DNA of 64,000 nt from Candidatus Omnitrophota bacterium (GCA_029261065.1 JAJDCB010000023.1:39682-103681); one strand, 5' to 3'. Counted from the stretch's first letter, positions 13,567 through 53,903 are shown. Notes: generated by a model from the sequence alone, not told the origin. Numbers and translations: made by a program.

Positions 13567-13603
13567 AAGTTGAAGTTTAAGAATAAAAAGAAAGGATTAT
13601 GAT

Positions 13604-16536: not shown

Positions 16537-16592
16537 TTTTAAACAATAGGGTATATAATGTCGGGAAAGTACCCCTTTAAAAAGTATGTGTT

Positions 16593-18656
16593 ATGACCAT
16601 TTTTAACAAAGCCAAAAACTCCCATTCCTTTTTTTCAATATCCTTTCATTCTGTTATTCTTATTTTTTCATTTTTTATATGGTGTTATCTATTTCGTGGA
16701 TATTTAAGCGGTGAGTTTTTACTCGAATTGGATGCGAAGTCTTATTATGAAAATTTTAAGTTTTTTTTGGATAATTTAAGCCGTGGTGTTTACCCCTTGT
16801 GGAATCCCGAAACGTTTGATGGCATGCCCAATGACTTTTTCTTAAGACGGATTGGCGAACACAATCCCTTTTATTATGTGATGGCCATAGCAATGGCAGA
16901 GGGAGTAAGTTTTTCTTTTTGTTACTTTTCTTTTTTGGCAGGGTATTTTTTCTTAGGCATAATAGGGTTTTATCGTTTGAGTATCCTGATTTTTAAGGAT
17001 AAGGATTTGGCCTTGGTGGCAAGTTTACTATTAATGTTTTCAGGTTTTGCCGGTATTTTATTTAAATCCTTTCTAATTCTTTTGTTTGTTCCTATGGTTT
17101 GGTTTTTTGTTTTCCTCCTTGATTTTGTACGGCGACAATCACGCATGGCATTTCTCGGAATGATTTTAACGTTAATGATTACATCCTCCACATATATCCC
17201 TTTTTATTTTCTTACCATTTTTTTATCTTTTTTGATTTTTTGGGGTGTTGTTTATCGAAAAGATGTGAAGAGCGTTTTAAAAGTATTTTTTGAATTTATG
17301 AGCACTCAACGATTACTCTTTGGTTTTAGCGTTGTTTCATTGATTCTAGCGTTGATTCCTGGCGTAACATTTTTTTGGGAAGTCAGTCGAGGAGATATGG
17401 TTTTTCCTGTAAGGCATTTGGCCTCGGGTAATGCTCATGCTTTAACGGTGAATGTGCAGTCTAGTGCTCACGGCGGTTTACCAGGGGGGGATGTTTGGCA
17501 GATGTTGTTCGGTGATTGGAAGAATATGACATTAGGTCGAATATATGTCCCCCTCGTGACGTACATACTTTTTTTATTAGGGTTTTTTACCCGAGTGACC
17601 CGTTTGGCAATCTTATTTGTTATGTGGTTTACGTTCATGTTTTTGTTATGTGTTTACGATGCTGGGCCAATTTATCAATGGTTATATAAATACGTTTTTT
17701 ACTTTAAATATTTTAGAAATTTTCATTTTTTTATTTGGTTAATACTAATTCCTTTGTTTATTTTGTTAAGTGTTGAACAATTGAAAGTCTTCTTAGCGCA
17801 ACGTGGCCGAGGTAAATTAGTTCAACAATATACACCTTGGAAGCTCATTGTAATCTCTTTTGTCATTCTTGCTGAGCCTGTTTGGGTATTCTCAAGTCTG
17901 CATAACAATGCTCCCAAAAGAATAGATCCGTATACATACGATAAACCCTATCTTGATTTTTCTTATTTGCGAAAAAGAAAGGGGTCGAGAAAAATTTGGA
18001 ATGCTGATTATGAGGCAGGCAAGCGTACTGTCTTAAAAAATCCTTATAAAGCTCAATCCATTTATTTTGGAACGAGTCATTATAATTTTTTGCGATCTAA
18101 TGTAAAAGACTTGGTTTTCTATGAGTATATGCGTTTTAAATTTTTATTATACGATGCTGTAGAGGTTATTAAAGATGCGCCTTTTGATGCAGCTCATATT
18201 TCTTTCTGGATTGATATCCAGCAAAGAATACAACAGAACCTTGCAACAGCACAAAATAGGGCGTTTGTTTCAGCAGGGGAAGATTTTAAGTTTGAAAATG
18301 TAGTAAATCCTGCACAACATGTTTTATCTGTTGAGAGTCCTTCAGAAAAATTTAAAGTCCTGGATTACAATGTTAATCACATTCGTTTAAAAACAAATTT
18401 TTCTACACAGAAGTTCTTAGTCTTTAACGATAATTACTATAAGGGATGGCGTGCTTTTATAAATGATCAGCCTGTGACCATTTGGCGAAGTAATATTGCA
18501 TATAAAGGAATATCGTTACCTCGGGGGGAGAATGTCGTCTTGTTTCGGTATGGATCGATTTTTGTTATTTTGTTTAACTATGTTTTAACATTTCTTATAG
18601 GGTTTATATTATTTTTGATGTGGAGAATGTATGGTCAAGAAAAAAAAAGGCGTTAA
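16593..18656 (+). CDS. YfhO-like polytopic membrane glycosyltransferase-family protein
   Basis: 687 aa and highly hydrophobic. LWNPETFDGMP resembles the YfhO WNPyiFgGmP motif. Divergent from the GT-C gene. Confidence 0.5.
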   Translation: MTIFNKAKNSHSFFSISFHSVILIFSFFIWCYLFRGYLSGEFLLELDAKSYYENFKFFLDNLSRGVYPLWNPETFDGMPNDFFLRRIGEHNPFYYVMAIAMAEGVSFSFCYFSFLAGYFFLGIIGFYRLSILIFKDKDLALVASLLLMFSGFAGILFKSFLILLFVPMVWFFVFLLDFVRRQSRMAFLGMILTLMITSSTYIPFYFLTIFLSFLIFWGVVYRKDVKSVLKVFFEFMSTQRLLFGFSVVSLILALIPGVTFFWEVSRGDMVFPVRHLASGNAHALTVNVQSSAHGGLPGGDVWQMLFGDWKNMTLGRIYVPLVTYILFLLGFFTRVTRLAILFVMWFTFMFLLCVYDAGPIYQWLYKYVFYFKYFRNFHFFIWLILIPLFILLSVEQLKVFLAQRGRGKLVQQYTPWKLIVISFVILAEPVWVFSSLHNNAPKRIDPYTYDKPYLDFSYLRKRKGSRKIWNADYEAGKRTVLKNPYKAQSIYFGTSHYNFLRSNVKDLVFYEYMRFKFLLYDAVEVIKDAPFDAAHISFWIDIQQRIQQNLATAQNRAFVSAGEDFKFENVVNPAQHVLSVESPSEKFKVLDYNVNHIRLKTNFSTQKFLVFNDNYYKGWRAFINDQPVTIWRSNIAYKGISLPRGENVVLFRYGSIFVILFNYVLTFLIGFILFLMWRMYGQEKKRR

Positions 18657-37490: not shown

Positions 37491-37598
37491 ATGTTATAAT
37501 AGGCCACTATGAATATACAAAATGTACTTTGTGAGAGGCAAGTATATTATGATTTGCAAAAACAATTTATGAAATAAGATTTAATAAAGGAGTATGGG

Positions 37599-38411
37599 GT
37601 GAAGCAAAAGTGGACTGGGAAAATAGTGGGAGCATTATTAGGATTTCTTTTTACGAGAGGGTTGCTAGGAGTTGTCTTTGGTTTGATCATTGGGCATATT
37701 TTTGATGTGGGTAAAGATCGATCTATGAAAAAGGCTTGGGGTGGCATTTTAGGTTTTATGTTTGCCGGTCCTTTGGGTGCCATAGCGGGTGTTTATTTCG
37801 GACATGCCCTTGATACGATGAGTTCTGAGGTTAATCATCGTTCCGTTTTTCAAATTAATTTCATATCCATATTGTCATACATTATTAAAGTTGATGGACG
37901 AATTGAGAAAGAAGAAGTTAATACCGTTTTAAAGACATTTGCTCAACTGGGATATCAACGTGAAGAAATGGAGCGCTTAGGAAAGACATTAGTTTTTGCT
38001 CTTGGACAAGATATAGATTTGAAGCAAACATGTGAGGCTTTTAAAAAGGTTGCGAGTTACGAAGAGCGATTTATGCTCTTGAGAGTTGTGTATTTTGTTG
38101 TGATGGCTGATGGCGTTTTTCATGCTAAAGAGAAAGAAGCTATTAGGCAGATTGTTGAGTATTTGGAAATTCGTGATTATGATTTTAAAAGCTTACAAGC
38201 GGAGTTTGTCTGCGTAGATGATGATCATTATGCCTTATTAGGATTAAAAAGAGGGGCCACAAAGGTGGAAATAAAGAAGGCATATCGCAAATTAGCTCTT
38301 ACGCATCATCCGGATCGGGTGGGTCATTTGGGGGAGGAGTATGTCAAGATTGCTACGGAAAAATTCCAAAAAATAAATGAAGCCTACGATAAAGCCCTCA
38401 AGGAGCTATAA
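37599..38411 (+). CDS. djlA: DjlA-like co-chaperone (TM + TerB-like domain + C-terminal J domain)
   Basis: GTG start 7 nt after AAGGAG. Two N-terminal TM helices. C-terminal J domain [32 protein letters not shown] with the HPD motif. Confidence 0.7.
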
Positions 38412-38466
38412 CCTCATACTTTTCAATAGGTTACATTTCAAGATTCATTAAATTGTTTGTCTCCTA

Positions 38467-38495
38467 TTGCATTTTTGAATACAACATTATATACT
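38467..38495 (+). promoter_or_regulatory. sigma70-like promoter (TTGCAT -17 bp- TATACT)
   Basis: The -35 TTGCAT at 38467-38472 and the -10 TATACT at 38490-38495 were read directly, with a 17-nt spacer. It points into the structured region. Confidence 0.45.
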
Positions 38496-38502
38496 TCCAG
38501 TA

Positions 38503-38757
38503 GACAATTTGGTTTTCGTTCATTGGACGAAAAGGCAAACTTGGGGTAACCCAAGGACGTCCCGCATTTGTAGTGCGGGACCCCGTTCACCTTATGAGAA
38601 TAAGAAATGGCGGGGCAAAACTAGAGGGTCCTATTAAGCGATAGGATAGCCAGACTGGCACTAAAAAAGGTGCTAGACTCCTTTAATAAGGAGTTGCCGA
38701 ATCTGTGGTAGAAGGTATTTAGGCCTATTCTTTTATTTAAAGGAATAGGTTTTTTTA
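38503..38757 (+). ncRNA. candidate small RNA or 5' leader (structured ~250-nt transcript between promoter and terminator)
   Basis: Contains GC hairpin GTCCCGCATTTGTAGTGCGGGAC (38559-38581), ACTCCTT-TAATAA-GGAGT, and a terminal hairpin CCTATTC-...-GAATAGG followed by T7 (38722-38757). No ORF with an RBS. No match to tmRNA/RNase P/SRP motifs that I can see. Confidence 0.3.
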
Positions 38758-38901
38758 TTAAGGGCTTTTGATAAGGAGCCTAACGTGTTAAACCAAATGA
38801 AATTTAATTGTCGGATGAGAATTAGAAAGGAAGAGAACTGTCTCTTCCTTTTTTTTATTTTGATAGAGAGATTGAAAATGTTGATAAACGGAGGATTTAA
38901 G

Positions 38902-40947
38902 ATGAAAAAATATGTTTCTGTATGGGCCATTATCATGTTTCTCGCAGTACCGAGTGTTGCAACTGCAATGGAGGAAGTAAAATTTATTCAAGCCGTTGAC
39001 CCGGGGTTTGTTCAACCCGTAGATACTGACGTTTCGCAAGCAGGAGATTTTTACGTGTTGGATCGCAAGGCCTCAAAAGTTTACGTGTTTGATAAGGAAG
39101 GAAAATTTCAATGGGGTTTTGGAGATCGTGGATTTGCTTTAGGTAAGATGTCTTTGCCTAATTCCCTGGCGATTTCGCTAAAGGGAAATGTTGTTATAGC
39201 AGACACAGGTAATTATCGGGCACAAGTATTTAATCGTAATGGACAAATTTTGTTTGAGTTGGGAAATAAAGGGACTTTGCCAGGTGAGTTTAAAAATGCA
39301 ACAAGTGTGGCTGTAGATCCTTTAGAAAATATCTATGTCGCAGATACGGAGTTAAACCGCATTTCTCAGTTTAGCCCTAAAGGAGTTTTCTTAAAGGTCA
39401 TGAATTTGGAATATAAGCCGATGGATTTAGCGTTTGATAAACAAGGAGCTATGTATGTGCTTTTGTCAGAGGCTGGTAAGATCGTCAAATATTCTATTGC
39501 AGGTGATGAGTTAAAGGAAATTACTTACTATCAAGACAAAGACAACGTGCTTGCCTCAACAGTGGGAATGACGGTGGATTCAAAGGGTGACATTTATCTT
39601 GTTGAACATAATAAACAAAGCATTAAGAAAATCGATCATAAGTCTCAGTTATTATTTTCTTTTGGTTCTCAGGGAGTAGGCAAAGGGCAATTTAACCATC
39701 CATTAGGAATATCAGCAGATGATTTAGGTAAAATTTATATCGCGGATTCTGCCAATAAAAGAGTACAGGTTTTAGAAATAAATGGAAGCACAAAACCAGA
39801 ATTGGCACAGGCCGTTTATTTGCGACCAGTTATTGATTATCAAAAAAGCCTTTCTGCTAATGATTCGATATCTGATGTCGATTATGTTCCCAACAAAGGG
39901 TTATATGCCTTATCGAATGAAAAAGGATATATTATTGTTAAAGGAGAACTTAATCAATTAATTGGTGACTCAAGTGATGAAAAGTTACATTTAAGCAATC
40001 CAAAAGCAATCCATGTGATGGATGATGGGCGTATGTTAGTAGCTGATACGGGTCATCATCGATTGAAGTTTCTTAAAACGGATGGTACTCATGATTATAC
40101 GTTTGGAAATAAAGGTGATCAAGATGGCGAATTTAATGCTCTTGAAGGTGTAGCCTCAGATTCAAAAGGGTATATCTATGTCGCTGATACAAACAATAAT
40201 CGTATCCAGATGTTTAATAGTGATGGCATTTATTTATCTTCTTTTGGTAGAAAGACGGAAGTATTAGATGATGCTAATCCAATGGGAGGAACTTTTCTGC
40301 ATCCAAAAGATTTGGCTTTTAATTCGAAAGATCATCTATACGTCTTAGATTATAAAAATAAGAGGATTCAAATCTTTGATGATCAGAAGATCTTTATTAA
40401 AGAAATAGGTGGGGCTCGCGATTTGGTAAAATTTTTAGAACCCATCGATATTGCGATTGATAACAACGATTATCTTTATGTAGCCGATCGTGGAGAACAC
40501 AATATTAAAGTGTTTGATCATGAAGGCCAATTAGTTCTTACCTTTGGATCCAATGGAAAAGGTCCAAGTCATTTTCCTGCGCTTTCAGCTATTGCTAGCT
40601 GGGAAGGGCAAATTTACGTTGCCAATAAAAATTTAGATGATATTGCTGTGTTCGCTTTTCAACCAAATAACACTATGAAAAAAGAACGCGTGTATATCAC
40701 AAAAATATCATTGCCATTACTCATGGATAACGCTACAGAAGAAATTAAACAGACAATGGCAAAGAAGTTGACGTTTGAAAATATCAGAAAAGAGTTATCA
40801 CAGAAACTAAATGTATCAGAGGACATATTAAATCAAGTTATTAAAGTAGAGGCTGAGGAATATTTAGGCGATGGAAGGTTAAAGTTGACTGTAAGTGCTC
40901 CTAAGGTTTTGCGAATGACTAAGACAGAAGTAGAGCCTATACAATAA
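38902..40947 (+). CDS. secreted NHL-repeat (six-bladed beta-propeller) protein
   Basis: ACGGAGGA RBS; signal peptide MKKYVSVWAIIMFLAVPSVATA. At least 8 NHL-type repeats (GxFxxPxGxAxDxxGxIYVADxxNxRIQxF, e.g. GEFNALEGVASDSKGYIYVADTNNNRIQMF). The 38785 start in the ORF track is an unsupported upstream extension. Confidence 0.75.
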   Translation: MKKYVSVWAIIMFLAVPSVATAMEEVKFIQAVDPGFVQPVDTDVSQAGDFYVLDRKASKVYVFDKEGKFQWGFGDRGFALGKMSLPNSLAISLKGNVVIADTGNYRAQVFNRNGQILFELGNKGTLPGEFKNATSVAVDPLENIYVADTELNRISQFSPKGVFLKVMNLEYKPMDLAFDKQGAMYVLLSEAGKIVKYSIAGDELKEITYYQDKDNVLASTVGMTVDSKGDIYLVEHNKQSIKKIDHKSQLLFSFGSQGVGKGQFNHPLGISADDLGKIYIADSANKRVQVLEINGSTKPELAQAVYLRPVIDYQKSLSANDSISDVDYVPNKGLYALSNEKGYIIVKGELNQLIGDSSDEKLHLSNPKAIHVMDDGRMLVADTGHHRLKFLKTDGTHDYTFGNKGDQDGEFNALEGVASDSKGYIYVADTNNNRIQMFNSDGIYLSSFGRKTEVLDDANPMGGTFLHPKDLAFNSKDHLYVLDYKNKRIQIFDDQKIFIKEIGGARDLVKFLEPIDIAIDNNDYLYVADRGEHNIKVFDHEGQLVLTFGSNGKGPSHFPALSAIASWEGQIYVANKNLDDIAVFAFQPNNTMKKERVYITKISLPLLMDNATEEIKQTMAKKLTFENIRKELSQKLNVSEDILNQVIKVEAEEYLGDGRLKLTVSAPKVLRMTKTEVEPIQ

Positions 40948-40979
40948 TAACTCAAAAGTTTATTATTGGAGCAAGAACT

Positions 40980-43900
40980 ATGAAGACATCGCAGTTAACT
41001 TTAATATTATTATTAGGTTTTGTGATGTCTTCTTTTTTGGGGTGTGATCAATTTCGTCCTCAGGAAAAGGGTCTGGTTATTGTTGATCCAAATTCAGAAG
41101 CAGTTGTTGTTGATGAGCAGGGAGATGAAATTGAAAGTGATTATGTTGATATTGTCGAAACGGTTAAGTCTTCAGAAACTGTTATCTTAAGAGATAACAA
41201 AATATTTACCAAAAATTCAAAGAAAAAATTTATTGAGAAAGATGCATCTCCCGCCATACCTGCAACAAAACAAGGTAACGTTAATAATTTAGAAGACGCT
41301 ATTAAAGAAGATCGTGTACCCACAACAAATTTTCAGTCTAAAGATACGCCTAAAGTTAAAAAAGTCGTTCATGAAAAAAGCATCGATCTCTGCAGTGATC
41401 AAGGATATATCTCCTCAGCCGAATGCCGCCTTTGTAGCGATATTCCAGGAGCTATTTGCAGTGAGACGATTAAATTATCTCATGGGGAGCAATGTTTTGA
41501 ATGTGCCACTCAACAAAAAACTTGCCGAGATTTAGGTTTTTTAAGTAAACGAGAATGTAAGAAATGTAATAAAAATGATGCGACAGAATGTGTATTTAAG
41601 GTAGAGGCGGACAACGGAAAATCTTGTTTTGAATGTGTGGATCGTGCCATCAAGTGTAAAGATTTAGGATTGATGAATTTGGATGAATGCACTTCGTGTG
41701 ACAAAGATCCTAAAATGGAATGCATTGCTGATCAGTTAACTGAGGAAGGGGTTAAGTGTTTTAATTGTGTCATTAAGCCTCAAAAATGTTCACAGCTTGG
41801 TCTCATTGATTTGCCTGGATGCCGTACGTGTCAGGAAGATCCCACAAAAGAATGTAAATCATCTAAGAAAACAAATTATGGGCAACAGTGTTATCAGTGT
41901 TTTGATAAAGAACAGAGTTGCGCGGAAATTAATCAATTAGATGTCTCAGAATGCTCAGGGTGTTTATCTCAGGCAGGTAAGGAATGTATAAAAACAGATA
42001 AAACCAAAGAAGGGTTGCAGTGTTATGGCTGTCAGGATCGTCATGAGTCTTGTGCGCATATAGGTTTGTTAAGCCAAGAGCAATGTGAGTCGTGTGACGC
42101 TAGTGAAAAGACACGCTGTGTTGCTGGACGTCAGACATTACAAGGTGAGTCTTGTTTTTCTTGTGTTAAAAAATCAAAAGATTGTCATGGGCTAGGTTAC
42201 CTTAGTCAAGAAGATTGCAGTATATGTGCTCAAAATCCACAAAAAGAGTGTCAGGCGGAGAGTCAAACAAAAGATGGCGAACAATGTTTCGTTTGTCAGG
42301 ATAAACCACAGCAATGTCAGGATTTGGGATTATTGGTGTCTAATCAATGTGAAGAATGTCAAAAGGATCCTACTAAAGAATGTGTGACCGCATTAAACAC
42401 GCAAGAAGGGCAACCATGTTTTGTTTGTCAGGATAAACCGCAACAGTGTCACGACATCGGTCAATTAGCGTTAGATATGTGTTCTGTTTGTTCGAAAGAT
42501 CCCAATAAGTTATGTTTACCAGGTGATAAAACCGAAGAGGGTGTCCAGTGTTATAACTGTGTCGATAGGCCGCAAGAGTGCAGTGATTTTAATCAACTAA
42601 AATTAGATGAATGTTTATTGTGCGAACAGGACGACAGTAAAAGATGTGTGGCGTATGACAAAACAGAAGAAGAGGTTCAGTGCTTTTTATGTGAGGATAA
42701 ACCGCAAGAGTGTAAAGATTTAGGGTTGTTAGCTCAAGATCAATGTGATTTATGTCAGCAAAATTCAAAGAAGGAATGTAGGGTTGATCAGGTTACAAAT
42801 AGCGGTGTGCAATGTTATTCATGCGCGGATAAACCACAGGAATGTCGGGATCTAGGATTGTTTAGTGAAGATGAATGTGGTTTGTGCGAAGAGAATCCAA
42901 AAAAACAATGTCAGATTGATAAACAAACGAAGGAAGGTGTGTCGTGTTTCATCTGTAAAGATAAGCCAAAGGATTGTTTAGACATTGGGTTATTAAATGA
43001 AGAGGGTTGTCAGATGTGTGAGGGGAATGAACGCAAGGACTGCCAAAAGGATGTTCTTACCGATGCCGGTGTGCAGTGTTATACATGTCAAGATAAGCCA
43101 CAAACTTGTGAAGACTTAGGCTTACTTAATCATGAAGGATGTGGGCGTTGTCAAGAAGATGAAAATACAGAATGTATTTTAGAGGCAAAAACAAATCAAG
43201 GGCAAGGTTGTTATTTGTGTGTAGAAAAATTGCAAGATTGTCAGCAGATTGATCAAATCGATTTATCAGAATGTGCGTCGTGTGAAAAAGATGTAAAAAA
43301 AGAATGCCAGATTGGTCAAAAGACAAAGCAAGGCAAACAATGTTATGAATGTGGAGAGAAGGCGCAAGAATGTCTGGATATAAATTTACTAAGTCTTGAT
43401 GAGTGTTTGGCCTGTGAGAAAGAAGATAATAAAATTTGTCAGCATAAAGATAAAACGAAGGAAGGGGTTCAATGTTATAGCTGTGAAGAGAAACCGCAAA
43501 CGTGTGTAGATTTAGGGTTAATAACGGAAGATGCCTGTGAAGTATGTAATCAGAATACAAGAACAGAATGTCAAGTAGATCAGATGACAAAAGAAGGAGT
43601 GTCTTGTTATTCTTGTCAGCAAAAACCTCAAGAGTGTCGAGATTTAGGGTTGTTTAGTTTGGATGAATGCGCCTCTTGTGAAGAAAATATGCGCAAACAG
43701 TGTCAAGAAGATCAGAAAACAGAAGGTGGGACACAATGTTACATTTGTCAGGACAAACCGCAAGCGTGTCATGACATAGGACTATTGGGAATAGATGAAT
43801 GTCAGCGCTGTGAAAGTCAATCTAATAAAATTTGTCAAGTGGATATCCTTACTGAGACCGGTACGCAATGCTTTACGTGTCAAGATAAGCCGCAAGAATG

Positions 43901-46900
43901 TGAAGACTTGGGGCTTCTTAAACAAGCACAATGTGAAACATGTCAGCGTGATGCGAATAAGGAATGCATGTTAACCGAGAAGACGAATCAAGGCGAGCAA
44001 TGTTTTGTGTGTGTTGAGAAGCCCCAAGATTGTTCACAGCTAAACCAGGTGAGTTTGGAAGAGTGTCAAACATGTAATGCCGATCCTGACAAAGAGTGTC
44101 GCGTAGGTAATAAAACGAAAGAGGGAACGCAATGTTATGAATGTGTAGATAAGCCGCAAGATTGTGCGCAGTTGGAATTGCTGAATTTAGAAGAGTGTTT
44201 TGTTTGCGAGGAAAATTCATCGAAAGAATGCGTATCAACTGTGAAAACAAAAGAAGGGATTCAGTGTTATGGTTGTCAGCAGAAAAAGGAAGAGTGTCGT
44301 GATATAGATTTATTATCAAAAGAGCAATGCGAATTTTGTGATCAGAATGCCAAGACAGAATGTCAGATGGATGCCCAAACAAAGGAGGGCAAGCAATGCT
44401 ATTCTTGTGTTCAAAAACCTCAAACGTGCCATGAGTTAGGGCTTTTTAGTCAGGATGATTGTTTAAGTTGTGAAAATAATAAACGCAAACAGTGTCAAGT
44501 TGATCAAAAGACAACGGATGGAACGCAATGTTTTATTTGTCAAGATAAGCCGCAAGAGTGTAATGATATTGGCTTATTAGATGAACCAGGATGTCAAGCC
44601 TGTGATGATAATCCAAACAAAGAATGTCAGGTAGATATTCAGACAGAAAATGGGGTGCAATGTTATACGTGTAAGGAAAAAGTTCAAGGGTGTGAACAAT
44701 TAGGATTTTTGAGCCAATCTCAATGCATGAGTTGTGAGGAAGATGGGCAGAATGAATGTGTTGGTAGTGATAAGACAGCGACTGGAGATCAATGTTATGT
44801 TTGTGTTGAAAAACCGCAATCGTGTGTGGAGCTTGATCAAGTTGGTTTGGAAGAATGTCAATCATGCGAAGCTGAAGATGGCAAAGAGTGCCATGTTGGT
44901 AACAAAACCAAAGAAGGACGACAATGTTATGTATGTGCTGATAAACCTCAAGAGTGTCACGACTTGGATTTAATTAATTTGGATGAATGTTTATCGTGTG
45001 AAGAAGATAGCAACATGAAATGTAACAGTAAAGGAAAAACGCAAGGTGGTATCCAGTGTTACGCCTGTGAAGAAAAGAAACAAGAGTGTCGTGATTTAGG
45101 ATTTTTAGCTTCAGATCAATGTGAGTTTTGTAATAAAAATGATAAAACGGAATGTCAAGAAAGTGAAAAAACAAAAAGTGGTGAGTTATGTTTCAGTTGT
45201 GTCATGAAACCTCAAACATGTCACGGTCTTGGGTTGTTTAGTTTAGATGATTGTCAAACATGCGAAAGTAATCCGCGTAAACAATGCCAGGCTGATCAAA
45301 TGACGGATGATGGATCCCAATGTTATATATGTCAAGATAAGCCGCAAAACTGTCGAGATATTGGACTGTTAGGCGAGGATGGATGTCAATTATGTGAGAA
45401 AAATAATAAGACATGTCAGGAAGATATATTAACGGAATCGGGCGTTCAGTGTTTTAGTTGTAAAGATAAACGAATGACGTGTGATGATTTGGGGCTACTT
45501 GGCCAATCTGATTGTAAAACGTGTGAGCATGATGCGAATAAGGAATGCATGCTATCCGAAAAAACGAACGATGGCGAACAATGTTTTGTCTGTGCCGAGA
45601 AGCCCCAAGATTGTTCTCAGTTAGATCAGATTAATTTGAGAGACTGTCAATCCTGTGAAAGCGACTCCTCGAAAGAATGTCGTGTTGGTAATAAGACGAA
45701 AGAAGGACGGCAGTGTTATGGATGTGTTGATAAACCACAAGAATGCGCGCAATTAGAACAGATAACGTTAGATGAATGTTTATCCTGCGAAGAAGATCCC
45801 AATAAAAAATGTATGACAAAAGATAAAACGCGTGAGGGCGTGCAATGCTACGCGTGTGAAGATAAGAAAAAAGAATGTCGAGATTTAGGCTTATTCTCCG
45901 AGGAACAATGTTCTTTCTGCCAACAGAATTCAAACACGGAATGTCAAGCTGTTGAAACAACACCTGATTCATTAACATGTTTCTCTTGTGTAGAAAAACC
46001 ACAAACGTGTCATGGTCTGGGTCTTTATAACCAAGAAAATTGTCAGAAGTGTGAAAGTAATCCACGTAAACAATGTCAGGCGGATCAAAAGACAAAAAGT
46101 GGAGAGCCGTGTTTTATTTGTCAGGATAAACCGCTTGAGTGTGAGGATATAGGTCTTCTAGATGAAGAGGGGTGTCGCGTTTGCCAAGATGGTTTGGGTA
46201 AGGTTTGTCAAAAAGATATTCTAACTGAGAATGGCGTGCAATGTTTTACTTGCGAAGAAAAACCGCAAGAGTGTCCGGATTTAGGTCTGTTAAGTTCAGA
46301 GGGATGTGCAGAGTGTCAAAACGATTTAACCAAGGATTGTTTACTAGCTCAGAAAACAAATCAAGGAGAAGAATGTTTCTTATGTGTGGATAAACCTCAA
46401 ACATGCCAAGGCATTGGTCAATTAAATTTAGACGAATGTCAAACGTGTGAATCAGATGGAACTAAAGAATGTTTGGCAGGAAATAAGACAAAAGAATCTC
46501 GTCAGTGTTACACATGTGAAGATAAAGCACAAACGTGTGAAAGTATAGATTTGATCAATTTAGATGAATGTCAAAATTGTGATGAACAGCCAAACATGGC
46601 CTGCAAAACGTCTCAGAGAACAAAGGAAGGGCGTCAATGTTATTCATGTGAAGAACGGGCTCCAGAGTGTCTAGACTTTGGGCTCTTATCACAAGAACAA
46701 TGTCAGCAATGTAATCAGAATCCATCCACGGAATGTCGAAAAGAAAAGAGTATGACATCAGGAGAAGGATGTTATGCCTGTGTGGATAAACCACAAGAAT
46801 GTCAGGACATTGGACTACTTAATCAAGAAGATTGTTCGCAATGTGAAAAAGATAAGCGAAAAGAATGTCGAGCTGATCAAACAACAAAAGAAGGCGTTCA

Positions 46901-47738
46901 ATGTTTTGTTTGTCAAAAGAAGCCAAAACAATGTGGAGATATTGGATTACTTGCGAAAGATCAATGTGTTCAGTGTGAAAAGAATGGAAGAAAGCAATGT
47001 CAGCAAGATTCGAAAACAAAATCAGGTGAGCAATGTTATGTGTGTGAAGATCGGCCTGAGGCGTGTGACGATTTAGGTTTGATTAATGACAAGCAATGTA
47101 AAACATGTGAAAGCAATCCAAAGGCCAAATGTGTGGCCACAGCTAAGACGAATAATTCTGATCAGTGCTTTAGATGTGTGATGCAAGAACAACAGTGTTC
47201 TGATATTGGACTCTCTGATTTATCAGAATGTTCAGCTTGTGAGAGTGATTCTAATAAACAATGTTTGGCTGCAAAAAAGACTGATAGTGGTATTCAATGT
47301 TATTCTTGTCAAGAGAAACCGAAGGGTTGTGCGAGTCTTTCACAACTAAGTTTGGCGGAATGTAATTCTTGTGAGACCGATGATAATAAGACATGTCAAC
47401 AAGCCAAGAAAACAGCCGATGGGGAGCAGTGTTATTCTTGTGAAGATAAACCACAACAACAACCAAGCCAGGCTTGCACAGATATTGGTCAGTCCAGTTT
47501 TGAACATTGTAAAGATTCATGTCCCGGGGAATGTTTGGAGGCTAGCTCCACAAAAAGTGCTGAACAATGTTACCGCTGTAAGGTTCCATTAGGAGCTCGA
47601 GAATGTCTGGATTATGAATATTTTCAAGATTGTAATTCTTGTACAGCAGATGAAAAATGTGCCAAGACAGGGTTGAGGTTGTTTGAAGGTAGTGGGCGTG
47701 GCGTTCCTTTAACCTGTTATACTTGCCGCCCGAAGTAA
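40980..47738 (+). CDS. giant cysteine-rich tandem-module lipoprotein (no recognised family)
   Basis: 2252 aa; TGGAG RBS; signal peptide with lipobox FLGC. About 45 tandem 44-aa modules with invariant spacing C-x2-C-x6-C-x10-C-x2-C-x7-C and core [DE]KPQxCxDLGLL. Very rich in K/E/D/Q; about 270 Cys in total. Confidence 0.8.
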   Translation: MKTSQLTLILLLGFVMSSFLGCDQFRPQEKGLVIVDPNSEAVVVDEQGDEIESDYVDIVETVKSSETVILRDNKIFTKNSKKKFIEKDASPAIPATKQGNVNNLEDAIKEDRVPTTNFQSKDTPKVKKVVHEKSIDLCSDQGYISSAECRLCSDIPGAICSETIKLSHGEQCFECATQQKTCRDLGFLSKRECKKCNKNDATECVFKVEADNGKSCFECVDRAIKCKDLGLMNLDECTSCDKDPKMECIADQLTEEGVKCFNCVIKPQKCSQLGLIDLPGCRTCQEDPTKECKSSKKTNYGQQCYQCFDKEQSCAEINQLDVSECSGCLSQAGKECIKTDKTKEGLQCYGCQDRHESCAHIGLLSQEQCESCDASEKTRCVAGRQTLQGESCFSCVKKSKDCHGLGYLSQEDCSICAQNPQKECQAESQTKDGEQCFVCQDKPQQCQDLGLLVSNQCEECQKDPTKECVTALNTQEGQPCFVCQDKPQQCHDIGQLALDMCSVCSKDPNKLCLPGDKTEEGVQCYNCVDRPQECSDFNQLKLDECLLCEQDDSKRCVAYDKTEEEVQCFLCEDKPQECKDLGLLAQDQCDLCQQNSKKECRVDQVTNSGVQCYSCADKPQECRDLGLFSEDECGLCEENPKKQCQIDKQTKEGVSCFICKDKPKDCLDIGLLNEEGCQMCEGNERKDCQKDVLTDAGVQCYTCQDKPQTCEDLGLLNHEGCGRCQEDENTECILEAKTNQGQGCYLCVEKLQDCQQIDQIDLSECASCEKDVKKECQIGQKTKQGKQCYECGEKAQECLDINLLSLDECLACEKEDNKICQHKDKTKEGVQCYSCEEKPQTCVDLGLITEDACEVCNQNTRTECQVDQMTKEGVSCYSCQQKPQECRDLGLFSLDECASCEENMRKQCQEDQKTEGGTQCYICQDKPQACHDIGLLGIDECQRCESQSNKICQVDILTETGTQCFTCQDKPQECEDLGLLKQAQCETCQRDANKECMLTEKTNQGEQCFVCVEKPQDCSQLNQVSLEECQTCNADPDKECRVGNKTKEGTQCYECVDKPQDCAQLELLNLEECFVCEENSSKECVSTVKTKEGIQCYGCQQKKEECRDIDLLSKEQCEFCDQNAKTECQMDAQTKEGKQCYSCVQKPQTCHELGLFSQDDCLSCENNKRKQCQVDQKTTDGTQCFICQDKPQECNDIGLLDEPGCQACDDNPNKECQVDIQTENGVQCYTCKEKVQGCEQLGFLSQSQCMSCEEDGQNECVGSDKTATGDQCYVCVEKPQSCVELDQVGLEECQSCEAEDGKECHVGNKTKEGRQCYVCADKPQECHDLDLINLDECLSCEEDSNMKCNSKGKTQGGIQCYACEEKKQECRDLGFLASDQCEFCNKNDKTECQESEKTKSGELCFSCVMKPQTCHGLGLFSLDDCQTCESNPRKQCQADQMTDDGSQCYICQDKPQNCRDIGLLGEDGCQLCEKNNKTCQEDILTESGVQCFSCKDKRMTCDDLGLLGQSDCKTCEHDANKECMLSEKTNDGEQCFVCAEKPQDCSQLDQINLRDCQSCESDSSKECRVGNKTKEGRQCYGCVDKPQECAQLEQITLDECLSCEEDPNKKCMTKDKTREGVQCYACEDKKKECRDLGLFSEEQCSFCQQNSNTECQAVETTPDSLTCFSCVEKPQTCHGLGLYNQENCQKCESNPRKQCQADQKTKSGEPCFICQDKPLECEDIGLLDEEGCRVCQDGLGKVCQKDILTENGVQCFTCEEKPQECPDLGLLSSEGCAECQNDLTKDCLLAQKTNQGEECFLCVDKPQTCQGIGQLNLDECQTCESDGTKECLAGNKTKESRQCYTCEDKAQTCESIDLINLDECQNCDEQPNMACKTSQRTKEGRQCYSCEERAPECLDFGLLSQEQCQQCNQNPSTECRKEKSMTSGEGCYACVDKPQECQDIGLLNQEDCSQCEKDKRKECRADQTTKEGVQCFVCQKKPKQCGDIGLLAKDQCVQCEKNGRKQCQQDSKTKSGEQCYVCEDRPEACDDLGLINDKQCKTCESNPKAKCVATAKTNNSDQCFRCVMQEQQCSDIGLSDLSECSACESDSNKQCLAAKKTDSGIQCYSCQEKPKGCASLSQLSLAECNSCETDDNKTCQQAKKTADGEQCYSCEDKPQQQPSQACTDIGQSSFEHCKDSCPGECLEASSTKSAEQCYRCKVPLGARECLDYEYFQDCNSCTADEKCAKTGLRLFEGSGRGVPLTCYTCRPK
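41470..47490 (+). repeat. Intragenic tandem repeat: 132-bp unit (one 129-bp copy) with a higher-order super-repeat of 6 units (792 bp)
   Basis: Protein periodicity read directly. Antisense stop-free artefact ORFs at 43126 and 43918 are exactly 792 bp apart. Comparable modules 12 units apart (e.g. 43930-44040 vs 45510-45620) look about 80-85% identical by eye. Confidence 0.75.
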
Positions 47739-48143
47739 AATAGACTGACCTAGACAAACCCAGACAGTATGATTTCAAATTAAAAAAATTTTAAAATAAT
47801 TAAAGCTTCTATCTTAAATCAGATTAGATGTTTATGTAAAAAATATGATTTTTCCGTCTGGGATCGCTGGTTTTTGCCATAAAAATGTTTTATATTTATT
47901 AAAGATTCACATGATGTGAATGTAGTTCTGAATGCGTAATAAATATGGAGGACAACATGGCTGAATGGAAAGAAGACAAACCAATAAAAACATCAAACGA
48001 AGAGCGAGATATTTTTAGTTGGGATGAACCAAATATTCTTTTGTAATCAACGGTATGTACCCCAGAGCAACTACGGGGTATTAAACCAAGATGGAATTTC
48101 GTTAAAGCTTCGAAATTCCTTGAATACCAACTTCATTATATAA

Positions 48144-48181
48144 ATCCTATTCCTTAATTATTAAGGAATAGGATTTTTTTT
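48144..48181 (+). terminator. rho-independent terminator
   Basis: CCTATTCCTT-AATTATT-AAGGAATAGG followed by T8. The stem sequence is similar to that of the 38722 terminator. Confidence 0.55.
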
Positions 48182-48204
48182 GATTTTGAATTATAATAAA
48201 GTTC

Positions 48205-48504
48205 ATGAAAGATTCGAATAATAATGAAGCGGGAACGTCAACGCGTTATCAAAAACATTTAAAAAAGAAACTCGAACTTTGGGAAGCTAAGTGCACACGT
48301 TGCGGGGTTTGTTGTGGGATTGTTGAGGGTGATCCTTGTGAGCATTTGGTGGAAGTGGGAAAGGGCGTTTATGGGTGTTCTATCTATGAGAATAGATTTG
48401 GAGAACATAAGACGGTGAGTGGTAAGGTCTTTCGATGTGTGCCGATACGAGATATTTTGCACAAATCCTGGCCAGGTGATCAATGTTGTGGGTATAAGAA
48501 ATAG
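48205..48504 (+). CDS. YkgJ/UPF0153-family CxxCxxCC Fe-S/zinc-chelating domain protein
   Basis: 99 aa; CTRCGVCC motif plus a downstream C...C...CC. Confidence 0.55.
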   Translation: MKDSNNNEAGTSTRYQKHLKKKLELWEAKCTRCGVCCGIVEGDPCEHLVEVGKGVYGCSIYENRFGEHKTVSGKVFRCVPIRDILHKSWPGDQCCGYKK

Positions 48505-48575
48505 GTTTTTTTTGGGTTAAAAATTAAATTTGAAAATGGACTTGTATTGGCTCATAATGGAGCTTCTTGATATTT

Positions 48576-48745
48576 TGTCATTCCCGAGGCATCGGGAATC
48601 AAATGGATTCCGGCTCTTCGGCCGGAATGACATAAGAGTACTTGTCAGAATGACACGAGAGTATTTGTCGGAATGACACAAAAACACCTGTCATTCCCGA
48701 GACATCGGGAATCTATTAGGTTCTGGATCTTCGGCTGAAATGATC
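48576..48745. repeat. Cluster of four or more GC-rich nested palindromic repeat units (TGTCATTCCCGAGGCATCGGGAATC; GGATTCCGGCTCTTCGGCCGGAATGACA; direct repeats ...TTGTCRGAATGACA...; TGTCATTCCCGAGACATCGGGAATCTATTAGG)
   Basis: Read directly in the 260-bp spacer between the YkgJ-like gene and cmoA. Confidence 0.75.
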
Positions 48746-48768
48746 AACATGAGTAGTAAGGAGTAGTA

Positions 48769-49479
48769 ATGGATAATACAGGCGATTCTATATTTGCAGA
48801 TAATGCCAATTGGGATTTTGGGGGAGAGACGCCTCAAAATTTTGATCAACATGTTAATCGTTCTATTCCCTTGTATAGAGAAGGGCATGATCTTGTTTTA
48901 AAAATTTCTGATTTCTTTTTAAAAGATGGTTCCCTGTGTTATGAGCTAGGATGTTCGACAGGACAATTGATTTCCAAATTGGGTCAAAAATATCAAGAGC
49001 GCGATGTTAAGTTTGTGGGGGTTGATCGGGAAGAAGCGATGATTAAAAGAGCTGAAGATAAATGTAGGCCTCTCACAAATGTTGAGCTTGTGACATCAGA
49101 TATCTTAGATATTGCATTTCAATCCGCCGATCTTATTGTCGCTTATTACACCATTCAATTTATCTCCCCAAAAAATCGCCAAATAATTTTTGATCGTATC
49201 TTTAATGCTTTAAATTGGGGAGGAGCATTTCTACTGTTTGAAAAAGTACGAGCCCCAGACGCCCGATTCCAAGATATGACAACCTCACTTTATACAGATT
49301 TTAAACTCGATCAACAATACACCCCTGAAGAAATCATCTCAAAAGCGCGTAGTCTTAAAGGTGTCTTAGAACCTTTCTCAGCTCAAGCCAACTACGATCT
49401 TCTTAAACGCGCTGGATTTGTGGATTATATGACGGTTATGAAATACGTGTGTTTTGAGGGGATTTTAGCGATAAAATAG
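48769..49479 (+). CDS. cmoA: carboxy-S-adenosyl-L-methionine synthase CmoA (tRNA cmo5U34 pathway)
   Basis: 236 aa; AAGGAG RBS. Collinear matches to CmoA as I recall it from E. coli: ELGCSTG, YTIQFISP/(LNFTLQFLEP), LNWGGAFLLFEK/(LNPGGALVLSEK), and C-terminal AGF...F. Confidence 0.8.
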   Translation: MDNTGDSIFADNANWDFGGETPQNFDQHVNRSIPLYREGHDLVLKISDFFLKDGSLCYELGCSTGQLISKLGQKYQERDVKFVGVDREEAMIKRAEDKCRPLTNVELVTSDILDIAFQSADLIVAYYTIQFISPKNRQIIFDRIFNALNWGGAFLLFEKVRAPDARFQDMTTSLYTDFKLDQQYTPEEIISKARSLKGVLEPFSAQANYDLLKRAGFVDYMTVMKYVCFEGILAIK

Positions 49480-49578
49480 TCTTTTTGGAACCCTTGCCTT
49501 TTCTATGAAATGTGGTATTCTTATAATGGTTAAATCACAATGGTTTAACCATTATGGTTTAAAAGTGAGGACATATCA

Positions 49579-50615: not shown

Positions 50616-53600
50616 ATGAGCACTTCACCAAATACTCAATTCCAATTTCCTGAAGTTCGTGTTGTGGAGGCATCCGCAGGCTCGGGCAAGACCTATGCGT
50701 TGTCCAAGCAATACATCCAGCTTTTATTAAATCCTAAACTATTGTTTGATCATGTTCCGATGCGTAATATCTTGGCGCTTACCTTTACCAACAAAGCCGC
50801 TTTTGAAATGAAAAGGCGTATTATTCAATTTTTAAAGATTATTGCTTTTAAACAGTTAACCAAAGATCAAGAAGAGGATGTTTTAGGATCCATTGGTATT
50901 AATCGTGAAGAGGCTAGTAAAAAAGCCTTTACGATTATGGAGGCGTTGATTAATAATTATAATTTCTTTCAAGTTCAAACCATTGATAAATTTATCAACG
51001 CGCTTCTTTCGGGTTGTGCTTTTAAAATTGGACTCACCGCTAATTTTCGCATCAAAACAAACTCCAAAGACTATTTAGAGTACAGTCTTGATCAACTCAT
51101 TGATCAAGCCTTGCGGGATAAAGACACGCTTAAACTTCTTCAAGAATTTCTGCACCATTATTTATATCTAGAAAATCGTCTTGGTTGGTTTCCTAAGAAG
51201 GATATGTTAGAGATTGTTAAAGCCTTGTTTATGCAAAATAACACGTATGGTCTGATGTTTGAAGAGACGGAATATTCGTCTCAAGATATTATTAAGAAGA
51301 AGAGATTGATTTTAGATGAGATGAGAAACTTAAAGAGTATCATGCCAGAAGGTGCGGATCTAAGGTTTGTGAAAGCTTTTGATAAATTTTTATTGGATCG
51401 TGAAAAGGGTTTTGATATTGATAGTATTTCGGATTATTTTAAAAGAGAAGTCTTTCCAGCTAAGAAGAATGTTGAGGTGTCACGCGCTGTTGAAAAATCT
51501 TGGGATAAGATTCACAAGAGTTTAAAACAGTTATGCGAAGAAGAAGCCTTTTCTTTGTTTAATCCTTATATTCAGATTTATGATCAGGTTAAAGGGATTT
51601 TTTTAGAACGTGCAGCCCGTGATGATGTTTTATTCTTAGAGGAATTAAATAAACGAGCGGGAGCTTTGTTTGATGATGATTATGTGACCGTTGAAGAGCT
51701 GTATTATCGATTGGCCACACGATTTCATCATTATTTGATTGATGAGTTTCAAGATACGAGTGCCCTTCAGTGGCATAATTTAGAGAAGATGGCAGAAGAG
51801 GCTTTATCCACGGGTGGTTCGTTATTTTATGTAGGAGATCGCAAGCAAGCGATTTATGGATTCCGAGGAGGAAATGTCGCGTTATTTGATCAGATAAAGA
51901 TGAGATTTAAAAGTTTTAATGTTCAAATTGCTCAGCTGACGAATAATTGGCGCAGTCAGAAAAGTGTTGTCGAATTTAATAATGCTGTTTTTGGGATGGA
52001 AAACTTAAAACATTTTATTGAACAAAAACAGGCGCGTGAGATAAGTAAGAAGAAAAAAAATCCTGTGGTCTTTTACGATGATGATTTTCTAGAGCTTCAA
52101 AATATCTTTGGGAGTTCTCAGCAATCCCATCAGCCAAAGAATGATAAAGGTTTTGTTTATATCCAAAAAATTGAGGCTGCAAAAAAGGAAGATCGCGACG
52201 AAATTATAAGAGAACATGTGCTTGAGCTTGTTGATGCTTTGCGTAAGCGGTTTTCTTTTTCGGATATTGCTTTTTTAACACGAAGTAATTATGAGGTCGA
52301 GCAGCTTACCAATTGGTTGCTTGAAGAGAAAATTCCAGTCGAGTCAGAGCGAACATCAAATATTAAAGAAAATGTTCTTATCGCTGAGATCGTCTCTTTC
52401 TTAAAGTTTCTTCACTCTCCTATTGATAATATCGCGTTTGCGGATTTTATTTTGGGCGACATTTTCACAAAGGCAACGGGCCTTTCTAAGACAACGATTC
52501 AAGAGTTTGTCTTTTTGTTAAGAGCGCGAACATCAAAGGAACGTGATTTTTATATTTATACAGAATTTCGAAAACAGTTCCCTGAGGTTTGGGATAAGTA
52601 TATTGAAAGTTCTTTTGCGAATGTTGGTCTGTATCCTCTGTATGAATTGGCGATTAGTTTTTATAGTCTCTATGACTGCCTAAATCTTTTTCCTGAGTTT
52701 CAAGGGTACTTAATGCATTTTTTAGAAATCATTAAGAATCAAGAGGAAGAGCATTCTGATATTGAATCTTTTTTAGAATATTATGATGAGCTTATTGGGG
52801 AGGCGTTGTATGTGCATGTGACAGACACCGATGCCATCAAAATTCTTACAGTGCATAAATCTAAAGGGCTTGAGTTCCCCGTCGTCATTATTCCCTTTCT
52901 AGGGATGGATGTTCAAGTCGGTGTTTCTCAAGAACAACAAATGTCTTATATCCTTCAAGAACATGAAAATTCTTTACAGTTATTGAGACTTAAGGGTAAG
53001 TATTTAGGGTTCTCAGAGAAGTTGTATGAGATTTATGCGAAAGAATATAAAAAGGCATTTATATCCGAGTTAAATAATATTTATGTCGCCATGACGCGTG
53101 CCCAACATGAATTGTATGCCTTTATCCCCGAAAAAATTGGTCAGAGTTTTAATTTGGCCCAACTGTTGATTCCAGAAGATGTTTATCAATGTGGTCAACC
53201 TCACATTTATGAAAAGTCCAAAGCTAAGTCAATGGCGGTTAAGAGATTAAGCGCCTCTTCTTATCAAGATTGGATTCATTTTTTGAACGATGAATTTTTA
53301 GATGAGGATCAGATCCATAATAGGCAAAAGAAGCTTGGGGGTGAAGTTGTTCATAGTATGTTGTCTTTTATTGGGAATCTTGCTCACGAAGATAAAGAAT
53401 TGGCCCTGGAACAAGCCTATAGTCATGCTCAAATGAATTTTCCTTTTGTCGATCATTTGGACGCTTATCTAAAAAAAGTGAAACAACTTCTTAACAATAA
53501 ACGTTTTGAGTCCATCTTTTCTGATAAAGATGCGCAAGTGTTTACGGAAAAAGAAATTGTTAACGCGTTTGGGCATAGTAAAAGGATTGATCGGCTGATT

Positions 53601-53810
53601 GTTAAGACAAGTGAGGTTTGGATTGTTGATTATAAATCGTCGCAAGATGAGGGCGGTGATTATGAAAAACAAGTGGGAGAATATATGGCTTTGGTTGATA
53701 AGTTGTATCCTCAGCATGAGATCAAAGGATTTATTGTTTACTTAGATGATTTACATATGCAAGAAGTGAAATCAATCAGCACTGTCATTACTGAGACATC
53801 AGGAATCTAA
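50616..53810 (+). CDS. AddA-like UvrD-family helicase with C-terminal PD-(D/E)xK nuclease
   Basis: 1064 aa. Walker A ASAGSGKTYAL; motif II LIDEFQDTS; motif III YVGDRKQAIYGFRGG; motif IV NWRSQ. C-terminal nuclease IVDYKSS...E.YM. The last 9 codons plus the stop lie in a repeat-family unit. Confidence 0.8.
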   Translation: MSTSPNTQFQFPEVRVVEASAGSGKTYALSKQYIQLLLNPKLLFDHVPMRNILALTFTNKAAFEMKRRIIQFLKIIAFKQLTKDQEEDVLGSIGINREEASKKAFTIMEALINNYNFFQVQTIDKFINALLSGCAFKIGLTANFRIKTNSKDYLEYSLDQLIDQALRDKDTLKLLQEFLHHYLYLENRLGWFPKKDMLEIVKALFMQNNTYGLMFEETEYSSQDIIKKKRLILDEMRNLKSIMPEGADLRFVKAFDKFLLDREKGFDIDSISDYFKREVFPAKKNVEVSRAVEKSWDKIHKSLKQLCEEEAFSLFNPYIQIYDQVKGIFLERAARDDVLFLEELNKRAGALFDDDYVTVEELYYRLATRFHHYLIDEFQDTSALQWHNLEKMAEEALSTGGSLFYVGDRKQAIYGFRGGNVALFDQIKMRFKSFNVQIAQLTNNWRSQKSVVEFNNAVFGMENLKHFIEQKQAREISKKKKNPVVFYDDDFLELQNIFGSSQQSHQPKNDKGFVYIQKIEAAKKEDRDEIIREHVLELVDALRKRFSFSDIAFLTRSNYEVEQLTNWLLEEKIPVESERTSNIKENVLIAEIVSFLKFLHSPIDNIAFADFILGDIFTKATGLSKTTIQEFVFLLRARTSKERDFYIYTEFRKQFPEVWDKYIESSFANVGLYPLYELAISFYSLYDCLNLFPEFQGYLMHFLEIIKNQEEEHSDIESFLEYYDELIGEALYVHVTDTDAIKILTVHKSKGLEFPVVIIPFLGMDVQVGVSQEQQMSYILQEHENSLQLLRLKGKYLGFSEKLYEIYAKEYKKAFISELNNIYVAMTRAQHELYAFIPEKIGQSFNLAQLLIPEDVYQCGQPHIYEKSKAKSMAVKRLSASSYQDWIHFLNDEFLDEDQIHNRQKKLGGEVVHSMLSFIGNLAHEDKELALEQAYSHAQMNFPFVDHLDAYLKKVKQLLNNKRFESIFSDKDAQVFTEKEIVNAFGHSKRIDRLIVKTSEVWIVDYKSSQDEGGDYEKQVGEYMALVDKLYPQHEIKGFIVYLDDLHMQEVKSISTVITETSGI

Positions 53811-53903
53811 TGGATTCCCGATGTCTCGGGAATGACAGGCTCCGGTTTGTCATTCCCGCGAAGGCGGGAATCTAATGGTTTTCCCCCGTCATGGGGGAAT
53901 GAT
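53791..53903. repeat. Three GC-rich palindromic repeat units (CTGTCATTACTGAGACATCAGGAATCTAATGG; GGATTCCCGATGTCTCGGGAATGACA; TGTCATTCCCGCGAAGGCGGGAATCTAATGG; TTCCCCCGTCATGGGGGAA)
   Basis: Read directly; the first unit supplies the C-terminal codons TVITETSGI and the stop of the AddA-like ORF. Confidence 0.75.

Follow-up and report, generated by a model that had tools for sequence, protein, structure and literature searches.

In Clostridioides difficile, cyclic di-GMP (c-di-GMP) riboswitches control adhesins and type IV pili. Tandem c-di-GMP riboswitches 5' of adhesin or pilus genes are already known (PMC12452182), and one example is the triple-tandem Bc3-5 riboswitch of Bacillus thuringiensis, which lies 5' of a collagen-adhesion gene according to the account of Zhou et al. 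(2016) given in PMC12452182. Omnitrophota reportedly depend on both type IV pili and very large proteins when they attach to host cells (PMC10066038). In the present study, we analyzed a 64,000-nucleotide stretch of DNA (the window) from a Candidatus Omnitrophota bacterium (GCA_029261065.1, JAJDCB010000023.1:39682-103681), in which a gene for an exported protein with NHL-repeat propellers (the NHL gene) is followed by a gene for a giant, cysteine-rich predicted lipoprotein (the giant gene). We give about an even chance to the reading that the two genes are a riboswitch-controlled operon that builds a cell-surface contact or adhesion structure. Neither PMC10066038 nor the giant-gene preprint mentions the NHL protein, the cysteine repeat or the riboswitch, and our literature search found no description of the operon, the module or the riboswitch association in Omnitrophota. 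New here are the host phylum, an NHL gene that always comes first, the aptamer with its insertions and, most of all, the family of six-cysteine modules.

Compared with the tandem c-di-GMP-I systems of adhesin and pilus genes, the likeness lies in the tandem units of aptamer and terminator, which in the relatives of the window stand 5' of large exported, surface or pilus genes. The differences are several. The host belongs to the Omnitrophota, and the first gene always encodes an NHL double propeller. Many copies of the aptamer score best with the GGC-variant model, and the copy in the window is single and carries insertions. In addition, OFF regulation is predicted here, and the cargo includes an undescribed Cys-module protein.

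Conservation of the gene pair

It had been proposed in the preliminary description, which was made from the window alone, that the NHL gene and the giant gene form a tight two-gene unit. Comparison with related genomes bore this out. The pair recurred as neighbors in seven other Omnitrophota loci (L001, L002, L003, L004, L005, L006 and L017) from three lineages; L002 is broken up by frameshifts, and the L003 contig ends just past the giant start codon. In six of these loci (L001-L005 and L017), the NHL stop codon and the giant start codon overlapped (ATGA), which implied coupled translation. L006 and the window carry a short gap with a ribosome-binding site (RBS) instead of the overlap. In the window, the gap had been given as 33 bp and the giant gene described as having its own RBS; the RBS is present (GGAG), and the gap is 32 nt. 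A consensus scan of these 32 nt found no terminator-like site, and promoter-like hexamers occurred at chance level in the surrounding 12 kb (37500-49500), with 30 found against 35 ± 6 in shuffles.

The NHL proteins of the pair-bearing loci formed three lineages with 46-51% identity between them, and the flanking genes differed between these lineages. The conserved unit is therefore the leader together with the NHL gene and the giant gene. With the genes alone taken into account, we found a single strand, a short or overlapping junction, no intervening terminator and a conserved order. These results indicated that, as judged from sequence, the NHL gene and the giant gene form one conserved operon.

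The riboswitch leader and its other cargo

A promoter, a structured RNA and a terminator had been noted upstream of the NHL gene. The RNA and the terminator are present; they are no separate unit and belong to the operon as its own leader, because the orthologous loci carry a riboswitch at this place. Two tandem c-di-GMP-I-GGC aptamers lie right 5' of the NHL gene in six loci (64-67.5 bits), and each tandem aptamer in the relatives has its own terminator hairpin. A clade covariance model built from these aptamers detected the same element 5' of NHL homologues in L006 (two), L009, L010-L015 and L021 (two). Rfam scored these further loci at 59-65 bits, and some of the aptamers matched best with the canonical RF01051 model, so the call between the GGC variant and the canonical c-di-GMP-I class is not sharp. 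Altogether, 20 aptamers in 13 related loci belonged to the c-di-GMP-I class (59-67.5 bits), all of them 5' of an NHL gene. The ligand is most likely c-di-GMP, judging by these family matches. To our knowledge, no experiment has yet identified the ligand of the GGC variant, and the conserved gene association could help settle what the 'GGC' c-di-GMP-I variants sense.

The leader of the window gave no match at the Rfam gathering thresholds. Its best Rfam match was RF03167 (c-di-GMP-I-GGC) at 38525-38581, with 26.2 bits (E=4.9e-4) against a gathering threshold of 59, and RF01051 (gathering threshold 35) scored lower than RF03167. The clade covariance model (R1) matched the leader as a 5' half (38522-38571, 25.4 bits) and a 3' half (38596-38664, 17 bits), in the correct order. 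Two blocks are inserted in the aptamer, one of 56 nt at 38560-38615 and the other of 40 nt at 38654-38693, and each folds into hairpins. The insertions of L006 were found at the same aptamer junction. With the insertions removed, 68 of the 86 clade consensus positions were kept, the changes in stem P1a were fully compensatory and the GNRA loop was retained. It appears that the window leader descends from the c-di-GMP-I family (RF01051/RF03167, clan CL00126) and works like it, while formally it lies outside the family.

A hairpin with a U-run was observed within about 10-120 nt of 14 of 15 aptamers (14 from the relatives and that of the window). The exception was the window, where the aptamer-terminator scan missed the hairpin at 38721-38752 that the consensus scan found. 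Its arms (GCCTATTC/GGAATAGG) are of the same class as those of the terminators behind the relatives' aptamers. The 145-bp gap that had been described after this terminator holds a further terminator-like hairpin, at the place where the relatives have their second tandem riboswitch. In the relatives, the 5' arm of the terminator is complementary to the 3' strand of aptamer stem P1b, and the 3' arm of the terminator mimics that strand. The energies of the duplex between P1b and the terminator beat those of shuffled controls in most instances (z of about -1 to -3), and this anti-terminator appeared in the minimum-free-energy fold of the second unit of L001. The complementarity suggests that the ligand-bound aptamer would free the terminator and thus act as an OFF switch. 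Further c-di-GMP-I-type aptamers that do not adjoin an NHL gene were seen at L016 14587-14657, L018 9570-9640 and L042 14266-14352 (45-55 bits with the clade model).

The riboswitch and the NHL gene also occur together in other company. In L010 (9751-20814), they are followed by a complete operon like that of a pilus or type II secretion system (T2SS), with a MshEN-T2SSE ATPase, T2SSF, prepilin, PilM/N, PilO and secretin. MshEN is a known c-di-GMP receptor domain. L011-L014 carry the same riboswitch and NHL gene with a similarly sized open reading frame (ORF) downstream, and the T2SSE ATPase was confirmed in L012. In L021, the NHL gene is followed by a gene for a 1,315-aa DUF3141/hydrolase-like protein, and in L009 by housekeeping genes. 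The riboswitch-led NHL homologues with such other downstream genes showed 42-47% identity. Genomes of the Nitrospira, Desulfovibrio and Halioglobus types encode full-length NHL homologues (30-40% identity), followed by TPR and CsgG-like proteins; the clade covariance model found no riboswitch 5' of these homologues. What the neighbors of the NHL gene have in common is a place in envelope and surface machinery rather than in thiol chemistry. A c-di-GMP-class riboswitch would be tied to a defined group of envelope genes, namely an NHL propeller, pilus machinery and a Cys-rod lipoprotein, in a phylum that is uncultured and ultra-small and that probably depends on hosts.

The same distribution raises the strongest rival explanation, mere co-regulation. 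The NHL gene would then be the conserved cargo of the riboswitch, and the giant gene an interchangeable passenger that shares its regulation. The link between riboswitch and NHL gene (15 Omnitrophota loci and the window) is indeed wider than that between the NHL gene and the giant gene (seven loci and the window). The downstream partner varies between a pilus operon, a DUF3141-like protein and none, and in a further locus, L084, a gene of the giant's kind stands alone behind an AT-rich upstream region of its own. A mere passenger is harder to reconcile with the ATGA overlap in six loci and its implied coupling of translation, and with the persistence of the pair across three lineages, among which the NHL proteins share about 50% identity and all flanking genes have changed. 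We therefore consider the absence of any partnership somewhat unlikely.

The cysteine modules and the propeller protein

Both products had been described as exported, and the translations agree, with a signal peptide in the NHL protein and a signal peptide plus putative lipobox in the giant protein. The giant protein has 2,252 aa with 289 Cys (12.8%) in perfectly periodic spacing; the earlier count of about 270 was too low. Its lipobox, SFLG/C22, fits the looser PROSITE-type pattern by eye, the reference pattern being [LVI][ASTVI][GAS]C. The lipobox Cys is also found in L002, L003, L005, L017 and L084 and is absent in L001, and the orthologues mostly read LFSC. A Cys-free tether connects the anchor with 46 tandem modules of 44 aa, which are followed by a degenerate cap (Table 1). 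In the modules, all six Cys are invariant, and T29, G32, an aromatic residue at position 36 and K41 are nearly so. Such a periodicity over 46 modules with six invariant Cys, together with the recurrence of the pair elsewhere, is far beyond chance.

Modules shared 41% identity on average, and the higher values at lag 6 (53%) and lag 12 (50%) indicated a super-repeat of six modules (792 nt). At the DNA level, the modules are about 54% identical, and Tandem Repeats Finder reported no DNA-level tandem array in the giant gene. Three antisense ORFs of 154 codons each lie on the minus strand of the giant gene (43126-43590, 43918-44382 and 45631-46095); they are of equal length, mirror the 792-nt super-repeat and are not genes. 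The giant protein of the window is 45% identical to that of L001 over 1,582 residues. The Cys count ranged from 224 to 289 in the four complete giant genes (L001, L004, L006 and the window), so the copy number varies. In the L001 giant gene (12118-17247), the central modules scarcely differ from one another, whereas those of the window are about 41% identical, and this points to recent amplification or homogenization in L001. Such variation in copy number and divergence is reminiscent of surface proteins that evolve fast.

No Pfam or NCBIfam family matched the giant protein or a 308-aa fragment of it. A three-module AlphaFold2 (AF2) model was built from a module alignment of non-overlapping windows with only 14 in-register rows, and it reached a predicted local distance difference test (pLDDT) score of 94.5. 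The predicted module consists of a short helix, a helix with C2xxC3 and a beta-hairpin with C4 and C5xxC6. Foldseek found no fold relative of this model in the PDB (best E 0.5). When the module profile was compared with PDB sequences, only the RING domains of MDM2/MDM4 matched (E=5.6e-5). The alignment is ungapped over 40 residues and shares the spacing of five Cys as well as the Thr and aromatic positions. The match is confined to the half of the MDM2 RING that holds its first site. The module lacks the ligands of the second site, and variable D or E residues stand where the RING has the His ligands of that site. Zinc site 1 of MDM2 is made up of the outer CxxC pairs, and for this reason the module may hold either three disulfides or a Zn(Cys)4 site plus one disulfide. 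Compared with the treble-clef type RING of MDM2/MDM4, the module is exported, occurs in 46 tandem copies and has no second zinc site, and the likeness may be convergent.

The RING match bears on another explanation, in which the giant protein would mainly be a metal-binding device, serving to store or buffer zinc or iron or acting as a redox or electron-transfer chain, with metal held by two CxxC pairs per module. It agrees with this that the only PDB match has the identical ungapped spacing C-x2-C-x7-C-x11-C-x2-C, that the outer CxxC pairs of MDM2 bind one Zn, and that 12.8% of the protein is Cys. Against it, metal-thiolate sites are seldom found outside the cytoplasm, and the protein is exported; the variable D/E residues replace the second-site His ligands; and some modules of relatives have CxxxC for CxxC, a change that disulfides tolerate better than metal sites. 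An adjoining gene for a ZIP zinc transporter was considered and rejected as a functional neighbor, for it occurs only in one closely related group and not in L004, L006 or the window. Even a bound metal could equally be a mere structural staple of a stalk. That the giant protein is mainly such a device is, in our estimate, very unlikely.

The module family is rare. When 1.84 billion representative proteins were scanned in full with HMMER, only 35 matched at E <= 1e-3, and a metagenome profile scan of 241 million records gave three loci. The best HMMER matches were fragments of proteins of the same kind as the giant. The distant ones were secreted proteins of 1,300-2,400 aa (P0122, P0127, P0134, P0135, P0140, P0142, P0147, P0148 and P0155) that combine N-terminal arrays of related six-Cys modules with the same cap and a C-terminal Peptidase_S8 (subtilisin-like) domain, which was Pfam-confirmed in P0122, P0127, P0134 and P0140 and recognized by eye in most of the others. 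The cap is common to L001, L083, L085, P0121 and these S8-fusion relatives. Unlike the giant protein, the S8 relatives carry a catalytic domain in cis, and their modules are more irregular. Neither the giant protein nor the module profile gave a match in word-indexed protein searches although homologues exist, which reflects a blind spot of the tool rather than absence; negatives of such searches should not be trusted for biased repeat proteins. Other families of exported proteins offer a general likeness. EGF, TNFR and furin-like repeats, the CxxC-containing variant-specific surface proteins (VSP) of Giardia and the Myxococcus cysteine-rich repeat are likewise arrays of many six-Cys tandem modules of about 40 residues, and the elongated string of small domains predicted here resembles them. 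The module of the window differs from them in its Cys spacing, and it has no Pfam or NCBIfam model and no PDB fold match. A very rare, confidently modelled Cys module without family or solved structure occurs both in giant lipoproteins and, as an N-terminal array, in secreted proteases.

The NHL protein has a signal peptide (MKKYVSVWAIIMFLAVPSVATA, ending VATA/ME) and matched Pfam NHL (PF01436) at E=3e-53 (175.7 bits against a cut-off of 20), with nothing else of substance. An AF2 model from an alignment of 41 orthologues (pLDDT 89.9) contains two six-bladed propellers and a C-terminal beta-helix-helix-beta-beta domain at about residues 596-667. Each propeller superposed on the NHL domains of TRIM71/Thin at 2.1-2.4 Å (target-normalized TM 0.83-0.88). 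The whole chain matched other tandem propellers, such as LRP6, BT4663 and PorZ. The protein thus resembles the NHL-repeat propellers of PF01436 (TRIM71/Brat/Thin) in having canonical six-bladed NHL propellers, and it differs from them in their tandem arrangement and in the extra C-terminal alpha/beta domain. This domain is conserved from Omnitrophota to the Nitrospira- and Desulfovibrio-type homologues, and it showed no similarity to the post-cap region of the S8 relatives.

It had further been suggested, on the ground that bacterial NHL propellers are often fused to or partnered with redoxin domains, that the propeller is a dedicated partner of the Cys-rich protein in folding, metal loading or processing. 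Several points speak for such a helper, namely the tight, conserved adjacency with overlapping stop and start codons, a substrate of 289 Cys that plausibly needs folding help, and the NHL propellers fused to thioredoxin-like domains elsewhere, for example in NHLRC2. Unlike the thioredoxin-NHL fusions, the exported NHL protein of the window has no thioredoxin or redoxin domain by Pfam and no Cys among its 681 aa. Its orthologues have 0-3 Cys, none of them conserved, and no conserved CxxC. None of PF00085, PF00578, PF08534 and PF13905 was listed for any of the 120 best NHL homologues. Moreover, NHL homologues with the same riboswitch accompany pilus operons or stand alone, and Cys modules occur without an NHL neighbor in L084 and also within the S8 proteases. 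These results spoke against a dedicated helper, which we consider very unlikely. A second NHL-like propeller had also been announced at 62110. The gene there does give a weak NHL signal (3.7e-7) with 26% local identity to the NHL protein, but it is no paralogue with the architecture of the NHL protein, and we rejected it as a second copy of the system.

The reading as a surface contact or adhesion structure would combine these parts as follows. The level of the second messenger would set, by premature termination, whether the pair is made; the bound ligand would cause termination, and the pair would be expressed at low c-di-GMP. Both proteins would reach the cell surface. With its lipid anchor, flexible tether, dozens of small cross-linked domains and terminal cap, the giant protein resembles a stalk, and the module array (about 2,100 residues, 46-48 modules) could form a long cross-linked stalk or fiber. 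A stalk or presentation role would also fit the position of related modules N-terminal to Peptidase_S8. Propellers are typical binding scaffolds, and the NHL protein may be a co-expressed binding partner or the head of the stalk, with adhesion as the putative role of the whole.

Several points weigh against this reading. The residue after the lipid Cys of the giant protein is Asp, which in E. coli is a signal for retention in the inner membrane. The window aptamer lies below the Rfam thresholds because of its two insertions, and it may be non-functional. No recognizable aptamer was found in front of the second hairpin (38824-38861). The OFF polarity is a prediction from folding and complementarity, and in many bacteria c-di-GMP induces adhesins rather than repressing them. 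A physical interaction between the NHL protein and the giant protein is presumed. Finally, the Cys-repeat lipoprotein gene of L084 (lipobox FLQGC) follows a divergently transcribed gene, and neither an NHL gene nor a riboswitch was found in the 5.2 kb 5' of it.

A bolder form of the reading, which we regard as unlikely, would take the module as a new extracytoplasmic fold, possibly a zinc-stapled 'half-RING', polymerized in cis as a rigid rod of about 100 nm. Together with an NHL head, the rod would be the contact fiber of ultra-small Omnitrophota, switched by c-di-GMP riboswitches, and thus a previously undescribed organelle for attachment to host or prey. If the combination of rod and propeller were true, it would represent a simple surface fiber of two proteins that could be made recombinantly and tested.

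Transcript ends and neighboring features

The features of the operon and its surroundings are collected in Table 1. The candidate promoter fell below the cut-off of our scan (3/6 and 5/6 matches), and its role as a promoter is conjectural. The terminator 3' of the giant gene is likely the 3' end of the operon transcript. The small ORF and the terminator that had been noted downstream of the giant gene both exist. The ORF gave no tblastn match in any relative locus and is probably outside the unit, because it is not conserved. As candidates for a third conserved gene, this small ORF and a gene for a 2-thiouracil-desulfurase-like protein were both rejected, since neither is kept across lineages.

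Table 1. Positions in the window of the operon, its leader and nearby features
Feature	Position	Strand	Remarks
Candidate promoter, TTGCAT-17 nt-TATACT	38467-38495	+	Read from sequence; about 25 nt 5' of the aptamer
c-di-GMP-I-class aptamer, interrupted by two inserted hairpin blocks	38522-38706	+	Rfam and clade covariance model
Expression-platform terminator, GGCCTATTC...GGAATAGG and U-run	38721-38752 (to 38759 with U-run)	+	Consensus scan
Second terminator-like hairpin and U-run	38824-38853 (to 38861 with U-run)	+	48 nt before the NHL start
NHL gene: exported protein, 681 aa, 0 Cys; signal peptide, two six-bladed NHL propellers, C-terminal alpha/beta domain	38902-40947	+	Pfam and AF2; ATG 38902, GGAGGA 7 nt 5' of start; TAA 40945-40947
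Spacer between NHL gene and giant gene	40948-40979	+	32 nt, GGAG at 40968-40971, no terminator
Giant gene	40980-47738	+	ATG 40980; 2,252 codons
Signal peptide and lipobox SFLG/C22	40980-41045	+	Read from translation
Cys-free charged tether, 115 residues, lipid anchor to repeats	41046-41390	+	
46 tandem 44-aa modules, C-x10-C-x2-C-x7-C-x11-C-x2-C-x6	41391-47474	+	
Two degenerate C-terminal 'cap' modules and stop codon	47475-47738	+	
29-aa ORF with RBS	47958-48047	+	3' of the giant gene
Strong intrinsic terminator, 16-bp stem and U-run	48142-48176 (to 48184 with U-run)	+	Consensus scan
Palindromic repeat, GTCATTCCCGAGRCATCGGGAATC	48577-48600; 48690-48713; 53813-53836 (-)		
Palindromic repeat, diverged copies	11020-11043 (-); 53784-53807		

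The public record of the NHL protein (P0001, 716 aa) starts at 38797, 105 nt before the ATG at 38902. This start, which lies upstream of the terminator-like hairpin at 38824-38853 and would include it, is probably too early. The gene 5' of the leader (37599-38411) encodes a protein with TerB and DnaJ domains (DjlA-like) and is not kept beside the operon in the relatives. Just past the operon terminator lies a Cys-rich ORF of 99 aa (48205-48504) with a weak YcgN-like match (E=0.027). In addition, a dispersed palindromic repeat of 24 nt (GTCATTCCCGAGRCATCGGGAATC) was found in five copies in the window, where zero are expected by chance. Most copies lie in intergenic DNA or at its edge, with one diverged copy in the coding end of the ORF at 50616-53810, and the repeat looks like a REP-like element.

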